Made by a program: the position numbers and the translations under genes. Shown in pieces: positions 9,839-55,149 of a stretch of DNA of 64,000 nucleotides; positions within the stretch are counted from its first letter, which is position 1, and each line of letters begins with the position of its first letter. The notes beneath the pieces are model-generated. The model did not search any database. It was not told where the DNA came from and saw nothing but the letters and a program-made list of their open reading frames with translations. This stretch comes from Podarcis cretensis (Eukaryota): the NCBI GenBank assembly GCA_951804945.1, contig OX638152.1, positions 43,958,001 to 44,022,000 of the forward strand, given 5' to 3'.

Positions 9839-10016
9839 GCCTAGCATGTCACTGGATGTAATCTACGGACTCTCTTCCCGTAATGGAAAACAGCACATCC
9901 TTCTCAGCCTCCTGGTTATTCATCTCTAGGACATACAGGCTTCACTTAGAAAGGAAAAAGATGAGGAAGGAAACTAGCACTTGGAAATTCTTCAGTTTAA
10001 AAGAATAATATGACAT

Positions 10017-10616
10017 AGAGTGGTGCATGCTCTGGTTATCTCACGCTTGGACTACTGCAACGCGCTCTACGTGGGGCTACCTTTGAAGGTGACCCGGAAA
10101 CTGCAATTAATCCAGAATGCGGCAGCTAGACTGGTGACTGGGAGTGGCCGCCGGGACCACATAACACCGGTTCTGAGAGATCTGCACTGGCTCCCAGTAC
10201 GTTTCCGAGCACGATTCAAAGTGTTGGTGCTGACCTTTAAAGCCCTAAACGGCCTCGGTCCTGTATACCTGAAGGAGCATCTCCACCCCCATCGTTCAGC
10301 CCGGACACTGAGATCCAGCGCCGAGGGCCTTCTGGCGGTTCCCTCATTGCGAGAAGTGAGGCTACAGGGAACCAGGCAGAGGGCCTTCTCGGTAGTGGCG
10401 CCCAACCTGTGGAACGCCCTCCCATCAGATGTCAAAGAGATAAAGAATTATCTGACATTCAGAAGACATCTTAAGGCAGCCCTGTTCAGGGAAGTTTTTA
10501 ATATGTAACGCTGTATTGTTTTTAACACTGATTGGGAGCCGCCCAGAGTGGCTGGGGAAACTCAGCCAGATGGGCGGGGTATAAATAATAAATTATTATT
10601 AAATTATTATTATTAT
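10017..10616 (+). mobile_element. L2 LINE, young 5'-truncated copy (ORF2 C-terminus, 3' UTR, TTA tail)
   Basis: [16 protein letters not shown]...LHWLPV...[13 protein letters not shown]; nearly identical to 54597-55149. Confidence 0.93.
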
Positions 10617-27045: not shown

Positions 27046-28685
27046 TTCCTTCCAGTAGCACCTTAAAGACCAACTAAGTTAGTTCTTGGTATGAGCTTTC
27101 GTGTGCATGCACACTTCTTCAGATACACTGAAACAGAAGTTTCCAGACCCTTCTATATAGTGAGAAGGTGGGGAGGGGTATTACTCAGAAGGGTGGTGGG
27201 AATGGGTGATTGGCAGATAGCTGTGATGAGCCTGTTGACGACTCTTAACGACTGCAATAGGTCTTACAGGAAAAAGCAAGGGGTGAGAAGGTGAAAAATG
27301 GCTTTGTCATGTATAATGAGATAAGAATCCAAGGTCTTTGTTCAGACCAGGACTCTCCATGGTTTTAAGTTTGGTGATAAGTTGCAATTCAGCAGCTTCT
27401 CTTTCCAGTCTATTTCTGAAATTCCTTTGTAGTAAAACAGCTACTTTGAGATCTTGTATAGAATGTCCTGGGAGATTGAAGTGTTCTCCTACTGGTTTCT
27501 CTGTCTTGTGAGTCCTGATATCTGATTTATGTCCGTTTATTCTTTGGCGTAAGGTCTGGTCTGTTTGTCCAATATAGAGAGCTGAAGGACACTGTTGGCA
27601 TTTGATGGCATACACAATGTTAGACGATGAGCAATTAAATAGTCCCGAGATGGTATGTGTGATGTTGTTGGGGCCAGTAATGGTGTTGTCCGGGTGTATG
27701 TGGCAGCAAAGTTGGCATCTGAGTTTATTGCAGGCTCTGGTGCCAGTGTCTGTGTTAGGTCTGGTTGTAGTATTATTGTGGGTTAGGAGTTGTTTAAGAT
27801 TGGGTGGCTGTCAGTAGGCAATGAAAGGTCTTCCTCCCAGAGCTTGAGAAAGAGAACTGTCATTGTCCAGGAGAGGTTGTAGATCTCTGATGATGTGTTG
27901 TACTGTTTTAACTTGGGAGCTGTATGTGATGACTAGAGGTGTTCTGTTATTTTCTTTTTTGGGTCTGTATTGCAGCAAGTTCTCTCTGGGTATCAGTCTG
28001 GCTCTGTTGATCTGTTGTCTAACTTCATCTGCTGGGTATTTTAGTTCTAAAAAGGTTTACTGTAGATCTCTTAGGTGAGAGTCTCTGTCTGTAGAATTGG
28101 AACAGATGCGGCTGTAACGTAGTGCCTGGCTATATACAATGGACTGTTTGGTATGTTTGGGATGGTAGCTAGAGGCATGTAGATATGTTTGTCGGTCAGT
28201 TGGTTTACGGTATAAGGTGGTGTCTATGCGCCCATCCTGTATTTTTATAGTAGTGTCCAAAAAATGTATTTCTTGCATAGATTGATTCATTGTTAGGTTG
28301 ATTGTGGGGTGAAAATCATTGAATTTCTGGTGGAAGGTGTCCAGGGTCTGTTGACCATGTGTCCAGATGATAAAAATATTGTCAATGTATCGCAGGTACA
28401 AGAGAGGTTTGAGTGGGTAGGAGTTTAGGAAACGTTGTTCTAAATCTGCCATGAAGATGTTGGCATACTGTGGGGCCATGCGGGTGCCCATAGCTGTGCC
28501 GCTGATCTGAAGGAACAGGTCATCACTGAATTTGAAGTTGTTGTGGGTAAGAACAAATTGGCAGAGTTTGGTGGCAAAGTCCGCTGTGGTTTTATCTGAA
28601 ATGGTGTTCTTTATAGCTTGTAAACCATCGTTGTGTGGAATGTTGGTATACAGAGATTCCACATCCATAGTGGGTAGTATGTACT
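27046..28685 (-). mobile_element. Penelope-like element (Neptune type): 5'-truncated RT, Cys-rich linker, GIY-YIG endonuclease, hammerhead-bearing terminus; inactivated
   Basis: DVESLYTNI, GTAMGTRMAPQYANIFM, RYID(N), LYRKPTD, VYAIKC..C...YIGQT; premature stops at about 28057 and 27812. Confidence 0.93.
27089..27126 (-). ncRNA. Minimal type I hammerhead ribozyme, intact core
   Basis: GUAU-CUGAAGA-A-GUGUGCAUGCACAC-GAAA-GCUC|AUAC. Confidence 0.88.
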
Positions 28686-29105
28686 TTGCATCGAGTTCTG
28701 GCAGAAAATAAATGAAGTTAGAAACTTTCTTCTTCATCTAAAATAATAATAATAATTTGGTGGAAAAAGTTGGGGCCAGCCACAGCCCTCCATGCCTTTG
28801 TATCTGGCCTCCCGGACTTTCCGCAGGCCACACCCCATTCTTAGCTGCATCCTTCACCAGCCATACTTTGTGCCCTCCTTGAAAGTTCTTGCTTGACTGA
28901 GATGTGTCTGATAATGTGTTTGTTTCACCAAAGGAGGATAGACAAGGGTATGTAGGACTAGTCTGATATACTAAGGCAAACTTTGATTCCCCCCCTTTGT
29001 TCACTTTTGCATCTGGCCACACAAACCATTGATATATGGTGAAAGCTGCCCAGATGGGAATGTAGCCCTCAGTATATTAAAGGTTCCCCACTCCTGATTA
29101 GTGAC

Positions 29106-29305
29106 CACTGGTGGAGGAAGAGGAGTGTGGGGGAGCGCACCGCCCCCGGCAGCGTGATCCCAGTGGGGTGCCATCACGGCTGCCCCCCCCGCCCACGCTG
29201 GGTGCGACACCCCTGCAGGCAGCGTGCCACACCCCCAGGATGCGCACCAGCCCTGCTCCTCACTTCTCTCCACCCCCGGTGCCGGAGCCTAAAGCTTCGC
29301 CACTG
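29106..29305. mobile_element. GC-rich hAT-type MITE (same family as 60947)
   Basis: cactggtggag / cttcgccactg termini; TSD ttagtgac/tttgtgat. Confidence 0.75.
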
Positions 29306-29569
29306 TTTGTGATTCCTTGCATACAAAATAGCTGGATGGATCTGACCGAAATTTGTCAGGCTTAATCTGATTTTGAGGGGGTCATTTCCTTGCAAATATA
29401 ATCCACTTACTATGAAAAGGAATAAAGGTGATAACCATTTCTAGATTTCCATTATAGCCAGTGGTGGTGAAACAGCTTTGGATTTAGCAGACAGTAGTGG
29501 AATACATGGGGGGGAGGGGGGATGCCATTCACCTGATCTCCAATTAGTCACATCATCAATGCTTCAGAT

Positions 29570-29650
29570 GGGATTCCTGCATTGCAGGAAGTTGGACTAG
29601 ATGACTCTTGGGGTCCCTTCTAGCTTCAACTCTATCATTCTACGATTCTA
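29570..29650 (+). mobile_element. CR1 3' terminus
   Basis: attcctgcattgcaggaagttggactagatgactcttggggtcccttc...attctacgattcta. Confidence 0.75.
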
Positions 29651-31399
29651 TAACTAGGAAATTGAGGGAGGTGAGGCAAGGCTGAGGCAAGTTGGATGGA
29701 GCTAATCTGGTTCTCCTGGTGGTGTGTTTATACCACTTGGTAAGCAGCAAGGATGCAACTGGCCAGAGGTCAAGTGAGTGGTGGCACCCCACCACACAGT
29801 CCACTACAGTTAACAGATCAGATGTGCACCTGAATAACAAATCAAATTAAAATGACGCAGAACAGTTCTAAACAGACTGGGCTGCTTTCAAATGCTACCA
29901 AAACAAAGTGAATAATGTGCCCACTGATCAGCCATAGTAAGTACAACAGAGAATGAAAAATCACACTCAAAAGGAAACTATTTTGATTCTGTAAACATTT
30001 AGAGACTGTGCTGGGTTCCGGGGGCGGGGGGGTCATATTCACTTTCGAAACATCTGACTGATAAAAATATTTCAACTCTAAAGAATTAGTGCTTTTATTT
30101 TCATCTGGATAATTTCATGTGGTGGAAATGATGGTGATGGGGGAAATCTGCAAGTGTTATAATATATGAATATGTGGCAAACAAGAAATACTATTGTTTC
30201 TTATTTACAGAAGCTTTGACCTTCCAAATAGGAGTTTCATCAAAATTTATCTTTAAAGCATGTGAGGAGCATGAATATAAAAATATGCAGTTTGCTATCC
30301 ATGGTGCTGAAATTCCCTTCTAAATTCTTAAATATGATAGCATGATATTCTATACTTGCAAATCAGAAAAAAAGCTTTTAAAAATGAAAACAAGTTGAAC
30401 ACATTCATCATTAACTAAATGAAAGAAAATTAGGCATTGTTCAATGACACTGGAAAAGAATACACTGTAATTACCAATTTGGAAAGATTGATTCTCTTTA
30501 GGTCATAGGAGCTAAAAGAGAAAAAAAGAACTAAAGGTATACATTTCTTAACCAGAACATTCCTGATAGTTTCACCCACAATTTTTCACATGCAATGTCA
30601 ATTCGGCATTAAATATCTACTTTAATTCTTTTCATAGCTCATAATTTTATTTTTGAAGTCTGGATTACCAGTTAGCCTGTCCAATGCTTGAGGAGGAAAC
30701 AGTAATTTTCCAGAAAATTTTGCAGCTTTATGTATTCATTACAATACAAAGCTCCACAGCTATTCATCAAAAGTTAAATAGCTGGGTTCCTAGCATCCAT
30801 TCTTTCCATACAACAGTATTCTATTAAATAAGCTAGCTTTCCCACATCCCTCTACAGTCCTCTGTAATCTTCATAAATTTATATCTGAGCAGTGAGGGCT
30901 CTCTGCAGCAGCATGGCATGTGGTGCAGGGTAAGGCTGAAATATCATCCAGTGTCGTGCAAAAACAATATCTTTTGATGCAAGCCATTATGTAGTTCAAC
31001 ATGAGCTTTTTTCACTCTTAGGATGCATCAGTACATCAAATCAAGGTATAAAAAAGAAACCAGTGAATGCAAATGACAAAGCAGCTGTCTATTCTGGACA
31101 AAGATGCTTTTGAATTTAATTCCAAACCAGAATACTTTGAGATTGTACGGGAATTTGACACCCAGAAGTCATAAAATAATTATGATAATCTGCATGGGTA
31201 GACTAGGCTACAGAAGAATCAAAGATTAACTCAAAACAAGGATTTCACATAATTAAACTAAGCACATGTCCCTTTCTGTATCTGGTTTAGCACTATAGAT
31301 TCAGCTACAGAATCATCTGCCATAAGGATGCAACCAAAATACTATCAAGCAACACAGAGAATGTCCAACACTGAAATATTCTGAATATGGCAAAAGCAG

Positions 31400-31546
31400 T
31401 AATGTTTATTTATTTATTTAACCATAAAATTCATGCGTAAACAGAAATTTCTTGAAATGTATTGTGAAAGTCAACAATGAGGGAGTCAGATGTACCTGAC
31501 CAGGGAAGGCATTCCACCAACTGGGAACTGTCACTGAAAAGGCACT
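31400..31546 (-). mobile_element. Old L2 3' remnant
   Basis: (TTTA)n followed by gggaaggcattccaccaactggg...cactgaaaaggcac, the antisense of AFSV..P..WN.LP. Confidence 0.6.
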
Positions 31547-33116
31547 GTCGGAGGGGGAGGGTTCAACATTCATCCAATTTCACAGAAATTCACAATTTTA
31601 ACACACACGCACCCCTATTTTTATTAAATGGTAATAACTATTCTCTTCCCACTACTTTGGCAGTTTTATTTATTGCTGATTATATTGTTCAGCCTGTCAG
31701 CTTAGGGTCAACTCAAACATATATGTGTATAATTAAATGATAACAACAGTAAACAATAAATGGAATGCGTGAAGCAGTCATCTCAAATCAAGTGCCACAT
31801 AGAAAGCTTTCACATCATTTTATCTACAGAATGTTTTAATGGAAGCAATTCACATGTTCTACACAATCAATCAGGTGTCGGGTAATCAAATGAGACTGTG
31901 ACTGACATGTTTGCATGTGTGTATTAACCCTAAACTTCAGATTACACCACCTGAATAAGTAGAAATGCAGAAAGTACAGAATGTTATAATACTGCTATAA
32001 CTCACTTTAGCAGTCTTTATGCAGCCAACATAATTTCCCAAACAGGTGGCAAAATATAATCATCAACATCAGAAACAACATCAAATTGATTTCTTAAAAC
32101 AGGAAAAAGCATCAGTTTATAAATTAAGTGATTCAATAATTATTCCAACTGTCATCTTTATAAACATGACAAACACTGCTTTGATGACAAAATGCATAAC
32201 CTGACCTCAGTTAACCAAATAAATGAGGATGACTTTTATCAGTCACTGCAATAAATACTGAGAAAAACACAAATTCAAAATAAAAAGAAAACTACAGAAA
32301 ATCTGATTTAGACAATGACGTAATTGTTTTTTAAAAACAATATTCTGCACAGACTAGAGTATTCAGAGTCACATTACTGAATGCAGCCAGGAATTACAAA
32401 AATATTTATTCCCAATATTTAAAAGAAAATGTTTAAATTTGGCTAGACTGCCTCCACCATCAGGGACTGCTGAATGAAACAGAACAATATCACATTATTG
32501 TTTTCTTATTATATTACGTATTTCCACTACAATTCAGTTAAAACAATGCTTGTGTATAAGAAAATAAATTTCATAGTTTGACATTTCCAGACTGATTTAA
32601 GAACAATAGTTTGAAATTCACATTTGAAACTGGTTTACAGACACGTGATATTGTCACTCCATGATTAAGAATCTTCCCATCAATAGATTCTTGTCCCCCC
32701 CCCCAATACATTTCAAGTTTGTGTTTTCAGTATCTGGTATGCATTGGTAGAGCACATCCATCCAAATTCTGGCACCCATCTGCACTGTTGAGTCTTTGTA
32801 CCATGTCCTCTGAACTTATTTTGAATGGCTGCATGGCACTCTAATTTTCTATTTTTTTTTAATTCTACATTACTTTCTTTTGCTTGGTATTTTGCTAATT
32901 GTACTAACTGGCAAAAGCTCATCACACATCTTTGCAAATAAATTGATTACTACCAACTTCATGCCACTGGATTCAACAATATTTTGAACCATTTCCCTCA
33001 TTGTTTTGGTAGTACTAATGCTCAACACCCTGTGTAATTCAGTTTTTCTATCTAGTATTTACATTTCTGTCATGCACAATAACATTAAATAGACAATATA
33101 CCTGAAATCGGTTTAC

Positions 33117-33195
33117 CTTGTTTGAGTCTGATTATATAGAAGAATCTTTTGTTAGCTTACCTAAAAAGAAACAGAGAAAGGAGTTTTGTTAAATT
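33117..33195 (-). other. Candidate recursive splice site (AG|GTAAGC at 33161|33160) with 44-nt RS-exon 33160-33117
   Basis: Minus strand reads tttaacaaaactcctttctctgtttctttttAG|GTAAGCtaac...caaacaag|GTAAAC; stops in all three frames. Confidence 0.6.
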
Positions 33196-34289
33196 CAGTA
33201 GGTTACATGGCACTTTTAAAAGAAAAAAAAATGGTCTGGATGCAAGCAGTTTTTTAAAAAAGCTAGAAATAATTAATCCAAGCACTAAAGGGTTTTGCCT
33301 ATTCTCTGTTATTTGCTGCTGATACCCATTCCTCAACCCATGGTAGTCAGTGGGGAAGGCATCTGTCATTCCTACTATTTGTAGCTACTGACAGAACTAT
33401 CTTCCATGTGGTGGTTTCCCTTTTTAAAAATGCCTGGAAATCTTGGGGTTGAATTAAGCATTCTGTTCTTTGAAAGGAAAGAGCTTCCACTCATGGAAGA
33501 ATTCATGAGCTACTCAGTTTACAAAACAGAATGTTTGAATTCAACCACATTCCATTTCGCCAGTCATTTAATTGTATATGTCAGTTTTCCATTGTGCACA
33601 TTGTCCTTGTATACTCTTTTCTTACTCATATGTGACTTTGTATTTTGTAACAATCATCAACCACTTTACAAAAATGTTAGTGAAGAATAAGCACACACGG
33701 CACGTAAAAATTAGTTTCAGGAACTGGGTGTAAAGGGATCCGACCCAGGACACACACTGGAGCTGGGACAGGAATGTGGGCAAGAACACTGAGTGGGGTG
33801 AGGATGCTGAGAGCATCCCAGCAGCAGATTAAAGGGCAGAAACAGAGAGCATTCTTTCTCAGTCCAAGCAGCAGGAAGAAGGAGACACCAGCAAAGGAAC
33901 ACAGAGGTAGAGGGCAATAGGGCAGACTATGAATGGAACCAGGGCTGCTCCAAAAATAGCATTGGGATTGGGGGTAGGAAGGGACCTTGGGAAGGTCATA
34001 ATCCAAGTGGCAAATCAGTGCGAGATAAAGGGTAGGAAGGACAGATAGGAAAGGAAAGTGAGAGATTGAAATGACCAGAAACACTAAATTAAACAAACAA
34101 AAGGAGTGGTGTACACTGATGAAAAGGGGTAACAAGACTCTTGGAGTAAGGAGTTCTGAAGATTCCTGGGACATTAGAAGGTAGGCGCTGACACGGGGGT
34201 TAACTGGGATGGATAGGAATGATAGGATATTATTGAGAAATTCAGTCACTGTTGCAGCAACATCAAGTGAAGTAAATACTGATATTGTT

Positions 34290-34490
34290 TATTTGTTGTC
34301 ACATTTATAGCCCACTTTCTTCCAAGGAACTCCATGACGTGTATATGGTTCTCCTTCTACTCCTGTTAGAATCACAACAACCCTTTGAGGTAGATTAGGC
34401 TGAGAGGCACTATCTTGCCCAAAAGTAACCCAGAGAGCTTCATGGATGAGTGAGGATTTGGACCCTGGCTCCCTCCTTATCTAGTTCAAT
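34290..34490 (-). mobile_element. Old CORE-SINE (MIR/Squam3A-like)
   Basis: cacaacaaccctttgaggtagattaggctgagag...cttgccca...agcttcatggatgagtgaggatttggaccctgg. Confidence 0.7.
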
Positions 34491-35295
34491 GGATCATTAG
34501 TATAACCCTGTACAAGATTTCTTTAGTTTTAATGGACTATAATTTCATTTCAAAACCATAAAATTCACCCTTCACCACCAAGTATATAATAAAGTTATAG
34601 CTTGTGAGCTGCTATATGGTGGAAGATCCACGTGTATTCCAAAACAAAACTAAGTAGTGATGCTATGGCCAGCTCTTTCAAACTTCATGTTAGGCTCCAT
34701 TTCCTAACATTTAACACATTTTGAGAATAGCCAGGTCAAAATATTGTTTTTTTTTAAGCTACAAGATAAATGAAAGTGTTGCCACTACAGTTTACCAGTT
34801 TTATAGAAAGCACCAACATACAACTGGATTAATTAGAGACCTTTCCAATATGTAGTGTAGACAAAATTGCATGTATTAATTATTACTGAAGAACACACAC
34901 ACACACTCCTTCAAATAAGAAACAAGGTCAACTAACAGTATGCTTAGATAAATTAAGAATATGTCTTCATGTGTTTGGCTGATTTGTCTGCATCCCTTTC
35001 CCTCTGCCAGGAGATTTTCTAAAGGAGTATCAAGTACAAAGAAAGCTACAAAGTACTACTTATGCATAATAGAAATTCAATGCATGCTCCTTGTTTTATT
35101 TCAAAGCCGATTACTGAAGAGCTCACACTATGCTGAATTGTCTCTTCTGTAAATGGAAGCACTGCATCACATGCTTTTCCTGTATTACTCATTCAGTCAT
35201 TCATGGTTGGTCAACTTACAAAATCATACAAATCATTCAGTATCAATATTCAAAATCACATTAATTAAAATAAATATCCCTAAATATCATTGCTA

Positions 35296-35298
<3 letters not shown>

Positions 35299-35371
<73 letters not shown>
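35299..35371. repeat. Compound (TC)n(AC)n microsatellite
   Basis: Seen directly. Confidence 0.95.
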
Positions 35372-35374
<3 letters not shown>

Positions 35375-36031
35375 GGAGAGGGAGATTGAGAGAGAGAGCC
35401 AGCAGATTTGGAGTATTACTGTTTTTTGAGTTCCAGAAATGATGATTCCACCTATTCCAATATTCAGTTTTTCTATGAGCAAACTCTGTACCATTCTGTT
35501 TGAGAGAGGTCTACAGGGGTTTGTTTTGTATTTCCATGTTATTCATTACTAGCATCCTGATATGTATAAGGAAATCCTAGAAGTGTTCTGTGGTGTACTT
35601 TACATCATTTAAAAGAAAAAGAAAGAAAGAAAAGTATAGGAAAAGTATAGGACAGATACAATAAGGCTGCAATTTGCTTACTTCAAATAAATCTAAATGA
35701 GTACAGTTAGACTTACTTTGCAGTGGTAGCTTCTCAAAAAAGCACTTGAAAGACAAATAAGTCTGTGACAGCAGCAAAGACCTCTTCTCCCAGCACATTT
35801 AAGACTCAGTGCCAAGTTATCCAACCATCTTCTTGGTAGAAAGGATGGCTGCCAATTCAAGGCTACAACAGGAGGTCTCAGACTCACAATTAGTGCTTGG
35901 CCTTTGCTTCTCATCAGATTCAAGTGGCTCTCTGTAACTTCTTTGTAGCACAGACAGGATCAATATAATTTATATTATGCATCAATCTTGCATGTTTTAT
36001 TAAGATAAAAAAAAATGCAATATAATAATAA

Positions 36032-36503
36032 ATAGTAGATCTGTAGAGTTTGAAGGGATCCCAAGGGACCTCTAGTCCAAGTGTCTGCAAATTCAGGGAT
36101 CGCAGTTCACCCCTGGTCATCCAACCTCTGTTAAAAACCTCCAACAAAAGAGAGTCCGCTACCCTCCAAGGTAGTCCATTCCACTGCTGAACAACTCTTA
36201 CCATCAGAAAGTTCTTCCTTATATTTAGTCAGAATCTGCTTTCCCGTAATTTAAATTCATTAGTTTCAATCCCACCCTTTGGAGCAGCAGAAAACAAGCT
36301 TGCTCCATCTTCCATATGACAGCCCTTTAGATAGTTGAAGTTGGGTATCATATCACCTATCATCAATTAGTCTTCTCTTTTCCAGGCTAAACATACTCAA
36401 CTCCTTCAACTGTTCTTCGTAAGGCTTGGTTTCCAGACCCTTTATCATCATGGTCTTCCCCCTCTACACATGTTCCAGTTTGTAAATATTCTTCTTAAAT
36501 TGG
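36032..36503 (-). mobile_element. CR1 LINE 3' fragment
   Basis: Antisense reads VRVVQQWNGLPWRVADS..LEVF; CR1 3' end at about 36035-36080. Confidence 0.85.
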
Positions 36504-38057
36504 TATTCTTCTTAAACTGGTTTCTAACTAAGCTTTCAGAATTCTGCATCTCAGCTATTATAAGTATAGTAAATTATCACCCAATTCCAGCACCTTCTTG
36601 CCTGCTTGCTGTGTCTGAAGCCCTGGAACAAATGGAAGGAACTAGTGTTTCATGCAGCAGAAATGTCAAATTTGGTCACATCACTTGAACTGGTCAAACC
36701 TGTTTGCGTGACATGAATCTTCTTTCTGTGAGCATGACTTAGAGTCGACTTTGAAGTTTATAAATGGAACACCCACTAAATTAAGCAGAACAAAGAAGCA
36801 ACTGATAGCTGAAGTACTGGACCCAAATGTACTCATTAGCGTGTTCAGATTTGCTCGCACTTTTCTTTTAGGGCTATATACTTCTTTAGTTTTCTGAATT
36901 TAATAAGCAAATGAAGGAACTTTTTCAAGAAAAGAATAGGAAAGGAAAATTATTTACACTTCCATCACTCCAACATGCAATGCCACCTATTACATTCAGC
37001 TGACAAACATCTAAACACATTTGATATCTCTTTATCATAATAGGTAACTGATCAGATTAAATATCCAGGATGAAAGCATAAATACAATGAAATTTAAAGA
37101 AACTTTCTCCACAAGTGAAGATTGATTATAATATTTTCTTTAAACATGACCAACTGTTTAAGTTTGATGTTTTAACCATGTGATAAAACGGTCCACTGGA
37201 CATCAATTGTGTAGGCAGTACATTTTCATTGTTACTCCATTCCATTTGCACAGAAAGGTTAAACAGTGAAAGCCATTGATCAACCAATGTTCACCTGCTG
37301 TTCAGTGACCAGTCACTTGGAACAACCCCTACCAGCTTTTCGCCCAATTACCCAGCATAGCTTGAACCCTGGAGAATCCAAAATATATTGTTGCTGCCTG
37401 GCCCAACTGGAAAACAAGCATTTCATTTCTCATTTAGCAAGGTTAAAAATAATGCTTTTCATTATATTGCTTTTCTTCCTAAAATCAACCTTCAGAAAAA
37501 AATCATCCCTGTTGTCTTAGATTAAATTACTATTTCTGCACATTTTCTGACCAAAGTTTCTGGCATGCTATTAATATAAATGGTCCTCTTTTCGACCTGC
37601 TTTCAAAAGCTTTGCCTATGCCTTATGGTGGGTGCCAGGCATGTAGAAGCCCAGTTATTGATACCTTATGACCTCTCTGGGCAAAATTCTATTCTTGATG
37701 ACATTCACAAGGCTTCACTGTAATTTACCCATATAACTGTTTACAACTATCCTTTCTTGTAGTAGTTGCCATGAGGGCAAGGGAACACTTACATTTCTAT
37801 AATTTCTTCTAAAGAGTAATGACTGTTAACTGTACCATGTCTTTTTTGCATTATGTCACCAAGTAGGCTTCAACTGTTAAAAAAAAATTGTGATGGAAAG
37901 AACATAAAAATCAAATTAAATGCTCACAAGCATTTTGCAGTACATGTACACAAGTGCTTTGCTTTTGACACAACAACTGGTTAGGTTCTAAATGCTATGT
38001 CTGTAGAAGTGTTGATCTATTACCCTGATTAGTAGTTAACTTTCATTTCTTTTCTAG

Positions 38058-38782: not shown

Positions 38783-39738
38783 TGGAGTAGAACTGGATAT
38801 GGAACAACTGACTGGTTCAAAATTGGGAAAGGAGTACGACAAGGCTGCATTTTGTCTCCTTGCTTATTTAACTTATATGCAGAATTCATCATGCGAAAGG
38901 CTGGGCTGGATGAATCCCTAGCCGGAATTAAGATTGCCGGAAGAAATATCAACAACCTCAGATATGCAGATGACACAACCTTGATGGCAGAAAGTGAGGA
39001 GGAATTAAAGAACCTTTTATTGAGGGTGAAAGAGGAGAGTGCAAAATATGGTCTGAAGCTCAACATCAAAAAAACGAAGATCATGGCTACTGGTCCCATC
39101 ACCTCCTGGCAAATAGAAGGGGAAGAAATGGAGGCAGTGAGAGATTTTACTTTCTTGGGCTCCATGATCACTGCAGATGGTGACAGCGGCCACGAAATTA
39201 AAAGATGCCTGCTTCTTGGGAGAAGGGCAATGACAGGCCTAGACAGCATCTTGAGAAGTAGAGACATCACCTTGCCAACAAAGGTCCATATAGTTAAAGC
39301 TATGGTTTTCCCAGTAGTGATGTATGGAAGTGAGAGCTGGACCATAAAGAAGGCTGATCGCCGAAGAATTGATGCTTTTGAATTATGGTGCTGGAGGAGA
39401 CTCTTGAGAGTCCCATGGACTGCAAGAAGATCAAACCTCTCCATTCTGAAGGAAATCAGCCCTGAGTGCTCACTGGAAGGACAGATTGTGAAGCTGAGGC
39501 TCCAGTACTTTGGCCACCTCATGAGAAGAGAAGACTCCCTGGAGAAGACCCTGATGTTGGGAAAGGGCACAAGGAGAAGGGGGCGACAGAGGACGAGATG
39601 GTTGGATAGTGTTTTCGATGTTACCAGCATGAGTCTGACCAAGCTGCGGGGGGCAGTGGAGGACAGGTATGCCTGGCGTTCTCTGGTCCATGGGGTCACG
39701 AAGAGTCGGACACGACTAAACGACTAAACAACAACAAC
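38783..39738 (+). mobile_element. Bov-B (RTE) LINE, 5'-truncated, young
   Basis: GVRQGCILSP, NLRYADD, ESWTIKK, LRVPWTARRSN; (CAA)n tail; perfect TSD aagtcatatga at 38772-38782 and 39739-39749. Confidence 0.96.
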
Positions 39739-52219: not shown

Positions 52220-53563
52220 CACACCAATACAAATAATATTGCTGCCTCCCCTTTTTCCTGTAGGCTTAGTATACCCTTGGAAAGGCAACAGAAGAGCAGT
52301 GAAGGCAACAGGTGCTTGTGTTTTGTAAATGATATTTTAGACTGCATCCAAGACATCATTCCTTTGTGTCTTGCTTACTTGGAGCATGGAGAAAGGATTA
52401 GAGCCTTTTGGGGGCAAGGACAGAGATGTTCATGCATCCCTAATATTCACTACAAATATCTAACACTGCTGGTGGTGGGGAGGTCAGTGACAAATCAGCA
52501 CTGGCAGGGAAGTTGCCTAAAACACAGCTTGTCCCTCAGCATCCATCTACTCTTGCTATGTGCAGCCATAAATAGATTTGGACATGCTCTGGTAAGTGCA
52601 GTGGGCCAATGAAAAAAAATTGTTTCATTTGAAACAGAAACTAAGTAAACAAACTAGAAGTTTTTTTTTTTTTAAAAAAAAGGCTTGAGTGGCACTTAGA
52701 AAAGGTGAAAGGTATGTGAACACTGGAGCTTTCTTAGCAATATATTCAAATTATTTTTATTCTTGTCTTCATTTTGAAGGACAAAGTACTAGAAGTCTAG
52801 GCAAGAGGAAGCAGTTTGTAATAATGACAAGATGCACTTAGGCAATCAGATGATTACCTACTGCATCCTTTAACCAAAACCATCAGCAGGAAGTTAGATG
52901 TTGTATGGTAGATGACTGCTGAGAAGCACCCCCATGAAAAGTCCCTTCCACTAGTACTGCATACTGAAGAATGTAAACATTATTTCTAGTGTGTATCAAC
53001 ACAGTTTGCAGATTTGTACAAAAGCAGTTTAAAGGGAATTCCTTGCATGGTACTGGATTTCCAATAGTGGCTGTGTCCTTTGCTTTAAAATGCTCCCATG
53101 CCTAATCCCCAGGTTTTTTTTTAATTTAGATAATTTTATGGAGCAGTCTGGAGACTTGGTGGGGATGAGTTCTGAACAGAAAAAAATGTGGGTGAATACC
53201 TTACGGGTTATATTTTGAATCATGTACAATATGTAGATTTCTTGTTTGCATTATCAGAGTTTCAGTGTTAGATTTTACACAATGCTAACACAACTCTGTA
53301 TAAACCTATGCAAAAACAAACAAACCATCCAATGTGTAATGTCCATTTTACACTTAGGAGTAATCAATGCTCTGGAACACTGTGCCTATTTAAATATGGT
53401 AGGCACTAGGTACCTTCTTTGCACTATTTCAACACCTACTTTTCGTTTGTTTTGTCATGTAATTTTATCATGTATGCATGTTTTCAAATTCTACCCATCT
53501 CTATTTTTGATAACTCAGTTGTCTATTTAACTTTTTAAAATAAATACTATTTTATCTGATTTT

Positions 53564-55149
53564 TGTGAAACCAACCACCTGTCTCCTGGATCCTTGCCCA
53601 TCCTGGCTTATAAAAGCTAGCCGGGAAGGACTGGGCAATGGGCTTCGTGGGGTGGTGAATGCTTCCCTCCGTGAGGGAGGCTTCCCAGACCCGCTGAAAG
53701 AGGCGGTTATTAAACCGCTTCTTAAAAAACCATCTTTAGATGCGGCCACGATGGCCAACTATCGTCCAGTCTCAAATCTTCCATTCTTGCGCAAGGTGAT
53801 TGAGCGAGCGGTTGCCGAACAACTCCAGGCACGCCTGGAAGAAGCGGACCATTTGGATCCCTTCCAGTCGGGATTCAGGCCTCATCATGGGACTGAAACT
53901 GCCTTGGTCGCACTGGTTGATGATCTCCGGCGGGCTAGGGACAAAGGTGAGAGCTGTTTCCTAGTTCTGCTGGATCTCTCAGCGGCGTTTGATACCATCG
54001 ACCATAACATCCTTCTGGACCGTCTTGAGGGGCTGGGAGCTGGGGGCACTGTCATACAGTGGTTCCGCTCCTTCCTCCTGGGCCGTGTTCAGAAAGTGGT
54101 GGTGGGGGATGAGTGTTCAGACCCCTGGGCTCTCACTTGTGGGGTGCCTCAGGGTTCTGTCCTCTCCCCCATGCTTTCCAATATTTACATGCAGCCGCTG
54201 GGAGAGATCATCAGGAGGTTTGGGCTGGGTGTTCATCAGTATGCGGATGATACCCAGCTCTACCTCTCTTTTAAATCAGAACCAGTGAGGGCGGTGAAGG
54301 TCCTGTGTGAGTGTCTGGAGGCGGTTGGAGGATGGATGGCGGCTAACAGATTGAGGTTGAATCCTGACAAGACAGAAGTACTGTTTTGGGGGGACAGGAG
54401 GCGGGCAGGTGTGGAGGATTCCCTGGTCCTGAATGGGGTAACTGTGCCCCTGAAGGACCAGGTGCGCAGCCTGGGAGTCATTTTGGACTCACAGCTGTCC
54501 ATGGAAGCTCAGGTCAAATCTGTGTCCAGGGCAGCTGTTTACCAGCTCCATCTGGTACGTAGGCTGAGACCCTATCTGCCTGCGGACTGTCTCGCCAGAG
54601 TGGTGCATGCTCTGGTTATCTCCCACTTGGACTACTGCAATGCACTCTACGTGGGGCTACCTTTGAAGGTGACTCAGAAACTACACCTAATCCAGAATGC
54701 GGCAGCTAGACTGGTGACTGGGGGCGGCCGCCGAGACCATATAACACCGGTCTTGAAAGACCTACATTGGCTCCCAGTATGTTTCCGAGCACAATTCAAA
54801 GTGTTGGTGCTGACCTTTAAAGCCCTAAACGGCCTCGGTCCAGTATACCTGAAGGAGCGTCTCCACCCCCATCATTCTGCCCGGACGCTGAGGTCCAGCG
54901 CCGAGGGCCTTCTGGCAGTTCCCTCATTGCGAGAAGCAAAGCTACAGGGAACCAGGCAGAGGGCCTTCTCGGTAGTGGCCCCCGCCCTGTGGAATGCCCT
55001 TCCAGCAGATGTAAAAGTGATAAACAACTACCTGACATTCAGAAGACATCTTAAGGCAGCCCTGTTCAGGGAAGTTTTTAACGTGTGATATTTTACTGTA
55101 TTTTTGGTTTTTATGGAAGCCACCCAGAGTGGCTGGGGAGGCCCAGCCA
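53564..55149 (+). mobile_element. L2 LINE, young 5'-truncated copy with uninterrupted 507-aa RT ORF
   Basis: PTTCLLDP, QSGFR, LDLSAAFDT, GVPQGSVLSP, YADDTQLY; 3' UTR runs into the gap. Confidence 0.96.

Follow-up and report, generated by a model that had tools for sequence, protein, structure and literature searches.

Lizard orthologue of the CADM2 recursive splice site RS2, recognized from the genome sequence of Podarcis cretensis

A candidate recursive splice site in the lizard Podarcis cretensis is, judged by sequence identity, gene and position, the orthologue of RS2, the second recursive site in intron 1 of human and mouse CADM2. The original prediction had allowed for either an orthologous or a new lizard site; being the CADM2 RS2 orthologue, it is not a new element. 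The site lies in a stretch of 64,000 nt (contig OX638152.1 of assembly GCA_951804945.1, here C4; positions 43,958,001 to 44,022,000), which was analyzed at its full length and is called the window below. In the lizard, RS2 is very probably a waypoint, as it is in mammals, through which a first intron of about 191 kb would be removed in three steps. This proposed function rests on homology, from which we infer that the site is used in lizard RNA.

Host gene

The host gene of the window is CADM2, and the window lies wholly inside intron 1 on the minus strand. A minus-strand exon at C4:43,892,933 matches the CADM2 entry of the PDB (3m45) with an E value of 2.5e-27; the next best match is CADM3 (2e-11), and CADM1 and ROBO2 also fall far behind. 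An exon scan placed it in a minus-strand run of immunoglobulin (Ig) exons at 43,892,933, 43,859,263, 43,852,723 and 43,804,504, with one more at about 43,840,400, and a search with the C2-set Ig family gave weak minus-strand matches at 43.85 and 43.84 Mb. At the other end of the intron, a CpG island at 44,113.5 to 44,115 kb holds CADM2 exon 1, which has 61 coding nt (MRLKPSVVLRLYSLCGILIQ) and ends CAAG/GTACCA (a slash marks a splice junction throughout). By eye, this exon resembles the human CADM2 exon 1 of a published reporter (PMC6224609), and both end CAAG/GTA in phase 1. The CpG island of the main CADM2 promoter together with exon 1 occupies C4:44,113,702-44,115,400 on the minus strand.

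The downstream end of the intron was set at a candidate microexon of 27 nt (C4:43,923,047-43,923,021, minus strand; AATKSKAK) with strong splice sites. Of the 16 candidates considered, two of which measure 27 nt, it was chosen for those splice sites and for its likeness to the human exon 2 peptide, and it is the likely CADM2 exon 2. With this inferred microexon as its downstream end, intron 1 measures 190,654 nt. The intron is thus a first intron of more than 50 kb in a brain-expressed gene, where the length threshold, for first or second introns, is that of the mouse study (PMC8797253) and brain expression is taken from mammals (10.1101/2025.08.14.666599). The original prediction had placed the site in a giant minus-strand intron and had listed CADM2 among its possible hosts; the intron of about 191 kb and the exon match (E value of 2.5e-27) bear out both proposals.

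Other hosts were considered and rejected. The Sulfotransfer_2 matches on C4 that HS6ST3 would be expected to give are found at 76.6 and 96.3 Mb, a long way from the window at 44.0 Mb. ROBO2, raised by the Ig matches, reaches an E value of 8e-4 at the exon versus 2.5e-27 for CADM2. A further Ig exon, found at C4:42.71 Mb, is encoded by the plus strand and is unrelated.

Lizard CADM2 exon 3 (C4:43,892,933, minus strand) itself begins with GT (CAG/GTAGCC). Splicing of an exon that ends in AAG to this start would create a weak donor (U1 duplex of -6.2 kcal/mol), and exon 3 resembles in this respect an annotated RS-exon of the type repressed by the EJC.

Anatomy of the site

Every feature listed in the original prediction was found at its minus-strand coordinates when the sequence was reread (Table 1). 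The RS-exon contains a TAA stop in each of its three frames, and the TGCATG downstream is an RBFOX-type motif. At the junction, a strong pyrimidine tract and a YAG stand directly before GT(A/G)AG. Among the 14 AGGT(A/G)AG sites of the window, RS2 alone has a strong tract (18 of 19 pyrimidines; the next best has 13), and in 60 dinucleotide shuffles made in 1-kb blocks, a YAG/GTRAG with at least 19 of 20 pyrimidines never occurred and one with at least 18 of 20 occurred in a single shuffle. TGCATG taken alone is common, with 25 copies on the minus strand of the window.

Table 1. Features of the RS2 region on the minus strand (window coordinates unless marked C4)
Feature	Position	Strand	Basis or remark
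Window in CADM2 intron 1	1-64000 (C4:43,958,001-44,022,000)	-	Intron from C4:44,113,701 to ~43,923,048
Branch-point-like TTTAAC	33188-33193	-	Sequence motif; the A at 33189 is the candidate branch point, 29 nt ahead of the junction
RS2 3' splice site: polypyrimidine tract 33183-33163 (21 nt) plus AG	33161-33183	-	19/20 pyrimidines
AG/GTAAGC junction	33161/33160 (33160 is C4:43,991,160)	-	Sequence
Partial donor GTAAGC; would become AAG/GTAAGC once joined to exon 1	33155-33160	-	Lizard exon 1 ends AAG
RS-exon of 44 nt (RE2 orthologue)	33117-33160	-	Alignment by eye with mouse and human exons
Block TATAATCAGACT inside the RS-exon	33125-33136	-	12/12 with mouse RE2; last 10/10 with human RE2
TAA in frame with lizard exon 1, within block TATAATCAGACT	33134-33132	-	Sequence
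Native downstream donor AAG/GTAAAC of the RS-exon	33111-33119	-	Mouse counterpart AAG/GTAAAA
Second possible donor CAG/GTATAT, after 33102	33096-33104	-	Sequence; 59-nt exon, 15 nt past the native donor
TGCATG (taken as RBFOX-type)	33071-33076	-	Sequence; 41 nt after the native donor

Orthology with mammalian RS2

In mouse, RS2 is reported as AG/GTAAGC followed by AAG/GTAAAA around a 42-nt exon (chr16:67142893-67142934, minus strand; Moon and Zhao 2022, PMC8797253); its U-rich 20-mer, with a 3' splice site MaxEnt score of 11.73, is similar to the lizard tract, and the site was validated in mouse cortex (PMC8797253). Human RS2/RE2 is placed at hg38 chr3:85,511,857 (Boone et al. 2025, 10.1101/2025.08.14.666599), and the human RE2 exon sequence is available from a reporter in Table S5 of Blazquez et al. 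2018 (PMC6224609). Conservation of the AG/GTAAG junction in other amniotes had been suggested as a check on the lizard site, and AG/GTAAGC is present in the published mouse RS2, as is the GTAAGC in the human exon. The lizard exon matches that of mouse in about 31 of 44 columns (by eye, with the mouse exon taken from two overlapping primers) and that of human in about 30 of 44 (by eye, with the reporter exon), with one 2-nt gap in each alignment. Common to all three species and in register are the GTAAGC start, the internal (TA)TAATCAGACT and the CAAG/GTAAA end.

The letters shared among the three exons, used as a search pattern, occur at one place in the 1.5-Gb genome, which is the RS2 site, and a reversed control pattern gave no match. 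The block TATAATCAGACT has one copy in 647 kb on both strands. Given an AG/GTAAGC site, the rough chance of finding the two 3' blocks is 1e-10, a figure that is indicative only, as the blocks were picked post hoc. The site also lies on the sense strand of intron 1, is the second of two sites there, and is similar to RE2.

That the AG/GTAAG is a chance motif unrelated to the known sites has a probability close to nil. AG/GT motifs with weaker tracts are indeed common and show no strand bias (65 sense versus 70 antisense with at least 13 pyrimidines), but a chance origin is at odds with the coincidence of gene, strand, intron and order and with an in-register identity to mouse and human that is unique in the genome, and this reading is refuted by the orthology evidence.

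Two-site architecture of intron 1

The mammalian intron carries a second element, RS1, and its lizard counterpart lies outside the window at C4:44,067,136-44,067,071 on the minus strand, 76 kb upstream of RS2. It consists of CAG/GTGAGT, a 66-nt exon, a native donor TTG/GTAAGT and a TGCATG at +28, and translation into its exon would meet an in-frame stop immediately past the junction (GE, then stop). In mouse, RS1 is described as AG/GTGAGT followed by TGG/GTAAGT around a 73-nt exon, with MaxEnt scores of 10.47 for the rebuilt donor AAGGTGAGT and 10.24 for the native donor TGGGTAAGT (PMC8797253); the human RS1 exon is likewise 73 nt long. By eye, the lizard exon and the mouse RS1 primer have CTTTAT and TCCTGT in common.

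The sense strand of lizard intron 1 contains exactly two YAG/GTRAG motifs preceded by at least 15 pyrimidines in 20, and these are RS1 and RS2. The same motif is absent from the antisense strand of intron 1 and from both strands of the 306 kb upstream. Further recursive sites were sought among 18 YAG/GT motifs of intron 1 with at least 16 pyrimidines, of which only RS1 and RS2 have a GTRAG donor. The order along the gene is exon 1, RS1, RS2 and then exon 2 or 3, dividing the lizard intron into segments of 46.6, 76.0 and 68.1 kb (24, 40 and 36%); coordinates published for human give 279, 273 and 214 kb (36, 36 and 28%) (10.1101/2025.08.14.666599).

Donor competition and the proposed splicing route

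With the AAG contributed by lizard exon 1, the rebuilt donor would be identical to the 9-mer of mouse RS2, AAGGTAAGC, for which a MaxEnt score of 10.22 is reported, against 8.38 for the mouse native donor AAGGTAAAA (PMC8797253). At the lizard site, the rebuilt donor is stronger than the downstream one: the rebuilt 9-mer scores 10.22 and the native donor was compared with it by U1 5'-end duplex energy. With pseudouridines ignored, the rebuilt donor reaches -9.5 kcal/mol, against -6.8 for the native and -7.2 for the second possible donor. After an included RS1 exon, the duplex of the rebuilt RS2 donor falls to -8.0 kcal/mol. The native donor of exon 1, AAG/GTACCA, has a U1 duplex of -5.6 kcal/mol, weaker than either rebuilt donor.

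If the lizard follows the mammalian route, the 44-nt exon would be recognized by exon definition, with the strong AG acceptor at one end and the exon's donor AAG/GTAAAC at the other, and exon 1, ending CAAG, would splice onto the RS2 AG either directly or after a like step at RS1. The rebuilt AAG/GTAAGC would then be expected to outcompete AAG/GTAAAC, and exon 1 would next be spliced to either the 27-nt microexon or exon 3; with the rebuilt donor in use, the RS-exon would be removed and the mRNA would bear no sign of it. Junction reads from mouse cortex number 219 up versus 22 down at RS2 (PMC8797253), and the native donor may similarly win in a minority of lizard transcripts. Such a minor product would read MRLKPSVVLRLYSLCGILIQGKLTKDSSI followed by a stop and would give no CADM2 protein from the normal start.

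Reading frame and the poison-exon label

Exon 1 ends in phase 1, and inclusion of the RS-exon reads GKLTKDSSI and then a stop; the frame is shifted, and the stop is codon 30, which lies 88 nt past the ATG. Stops less than 150 nt from the start mostly escape nonsense-mediated decay (NMD), according to a review (PMC8082775), so inclusion in the lizard would abolish the normal protein and may spare the RNA; NMD of the RS-exon transcript may be weak, the stop being start-proximal. For a transcript that contains RE1 together with RE2, Boone et al. mention a stop codon in each (10.1101/2025.08.14.666599). The mouse and human RE2 exons are 42 nt long and, read by eye in the exon-1 frame, free of stops, unlike the 44-nt lizard exon. 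The original prediction called this a poison exon, a description that suits the lizard copy, with its premature in-frame stop, but not the element as a whole, as neither the stop nor the frameshift is conserved across the orthologues. That the reading frame is not conserved suggests that selection maintains the splice signals rather than a poison function.

Downstream of the exon, the original prediction had listed a further donor and an RBFOX motif. Both are present in the lizard, but neither has a counterpart in the approximately 100 nt of human intron that follow RE2 in the reporter (PMC6224609). In the lizard, TGCATG recurs after donors, at +28 of RS1, +41 of RS2 and +32 and +113 of the microexon, with a chance of 2.7% per site within 50 nt. 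As the RS2 motif prompted the look and is missing after human RE2, this recurrence stays a lead.

These observations bear on a very unlikely reading in which the RS2 orthologue is mainly a regulated poison cassette exon, possibly promoted by RBFOX, that adjusts how much CADM2 is made, and in which recursive skipping plays a secondary part. It draws on the 44-nt length, which brings both the frameshift and the stop at codon 30, on the TGCATG motifs 28, 41 and 32 nt past the RS1, RS2 and microexon donors (2.7% per site), and on transcripts containing RE1 and RE2 that were reconstructed in human neurons (10.1101/2025.08.14.666599). However, the rebuilt donor is stronger than the native one, the stop, at 88 nt past the start codon, falls in the <150-nt zone where NMD often fails, and the mammalian exon is, by eye, in frame and stop-free, with TGCATG missing from the approximately 100 nt of human intron.

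Sequence context and related genomes

In DNA-like runs aligned to 31200-35200, depth rises only at approximately 31470-31600 (about 5-fold) and at 34280-34550 (up to several hundred-fold). The flat depth between these two peaks places RS2 in about 2.7 kb without high-copy repeats, and the repeat-poor setting noted in the original prediction is thereby upheld. Short repeats flank the RS2 region at 34280-34550 and 31465-31550, the former probably a SINE. Elsewhere in the window, stop-to-stop frames resembling retrotransposon reverse transcriptases lie at 10014-10508 (plus), 27307-28737 (minus), 38783-39727 (plus) and 53544-55088 (plus), and from their appearance we take these to be L2/CR1-like, Penelope-like with a GIY-YIG-type part, and RTE/BovB-like elements. 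A search of 28000-38000 against Rfam gave no matches.

A second, congener-like organism (organism B), about 1.5% different, has 60 differing places in 4,001 bases. Among the 40 of 75 rows listed, two changes (33094 and 33151) fall within 33071-33195 against approximately 1.9 expected, so no local constraint is detectable by a test of little power, and the splice signals of RS2 are untouched in those 40 listed rows, which again has little power. In the same organism, 85 other letters replace 12 bases at 33363-33376, some 200 nt on the 5' side of the RS2 acceptor, indicating that the flank tolerates insertions. A search for orthologues from other vertebrates, made via host DNA in metagenome contigs, returned no matches. 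No RNA data set was listed as matching 32400-34000, and two contig sets guessed to be RNA (X6 and X7) had nothing aligned at RS2, a result that is uninformative either way.

The lizard intron, at 191 kb versus 767 kb in human, could have outlived its need for the site, such that RS2 would be a conserved relic and lizards would splice the shortened intron without using it; the lack of excess conservation in the underpowered comparison with organism B is compatible with this. We regard it as highly improbable. Mammals and reptiles separated about 320 million years ago, and most intronic sequence would not persist that long, yet the element has retained its two splice signals and its internal block since the split, and its partner RS1 has been kept as well. 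The RS2 acceptor is, moreover, the strongest RS-type motif in the window, and in mouse, introns with recursive sites begin at 51 kb (PMC8797253). Conservation as a working recursive site is the reading that we retain.

Comparison with known recursive sites

Mouse Cadm2 RS2 is the closest characterized counterpart: both are the second site in intron 1, with a U-rich tract, AG/GTAAGC, the rebuilt donor AAGGTAAGC, a native AAG/GTAAA and the 12-nt block. They differ in the native donor (GTAAAA in mouse versus GTAAAC in lizard), in the exon (42 nt and stop-free in the exon-1 frame versus 44 nt and stopping at codon 30) and in the distance from exon 1 (about 477 kb versus 123 kb). Use of the mouse site was demonstrated with junction reads and RT-PCR (PMC8797253), and use of the lizard site is predicted by homology. 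Human RS2/RE2 shares with the lizard element its start, a 10-nt internal block, its end, an exon 1 ending in AAG and a two-site intron 1. At the level of the class, the lizard site has the expected makeup of the vertebrate cryptic RS-exons that Sibley et al. reportedly defined in 2015, by the account of later papers: an AG/GT within the long first intron of a gene expressed in brain, an RS-exon, and a strong rebuilt donor with a weaker one downstream. No class-level difference separates lizard RS2 from that group.

The human RS2 exon is included when the first exon of a minor promoter rebuilds a weak donor, AGT/GTAAGC, with a score of 5.3 (PMC6224609, 10.1101/2025.08.14.666599), and the region of this promoter and RS2 has been described as the main GWAS hotspot of CADM2 (10.1101/2025.08.14.666599). 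The lizard window yielded no such promoter by CpG islands (observed/expected ratio at most 0.41 in 2-kb bins), a result compatible with a non-CpG promoter. To our eye, the human minor-promoter first exon (the sequence in Blazquez 2018 Table S5) looks like the end of an LTR12-type retroviral LTR. Such an origin, which is our assumption, would make the minor-promoter switch primate specific and absent in lizards.

Implications

Among the matches listed, no report of recursive splicing in lizards was found, and the supplements of Sibley 2015 may show reptile alignments. A further, very unlikely idea is that squamate RS2 acts as a regulated off-switch, in which the 2-nt length change would put the TAA of the TAATCAGACT block in frame and RBFOX-type motifs 28 to 41 nt past RS1, RS2 and the microexon would couple recursive splicing to neuronal RBFOX levels. 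As the lizard intron is about 4 times shorter than that of human, removal in steps may be less needed; if the off-switch idea were true, the retention of both waypoints in a four-fold shorter intron would argue that regulation, and not length, retains them.

The recursive element itself is published and tested in mammals, and what the lizard copy contributes is comparative and modest. RS1 and RS2 remain, in the same order, in an intron of one quarter the human length, and the block of 10 to 12 nt kept within the RS-exon between lizard and mammals is a candidate exon-definition element.
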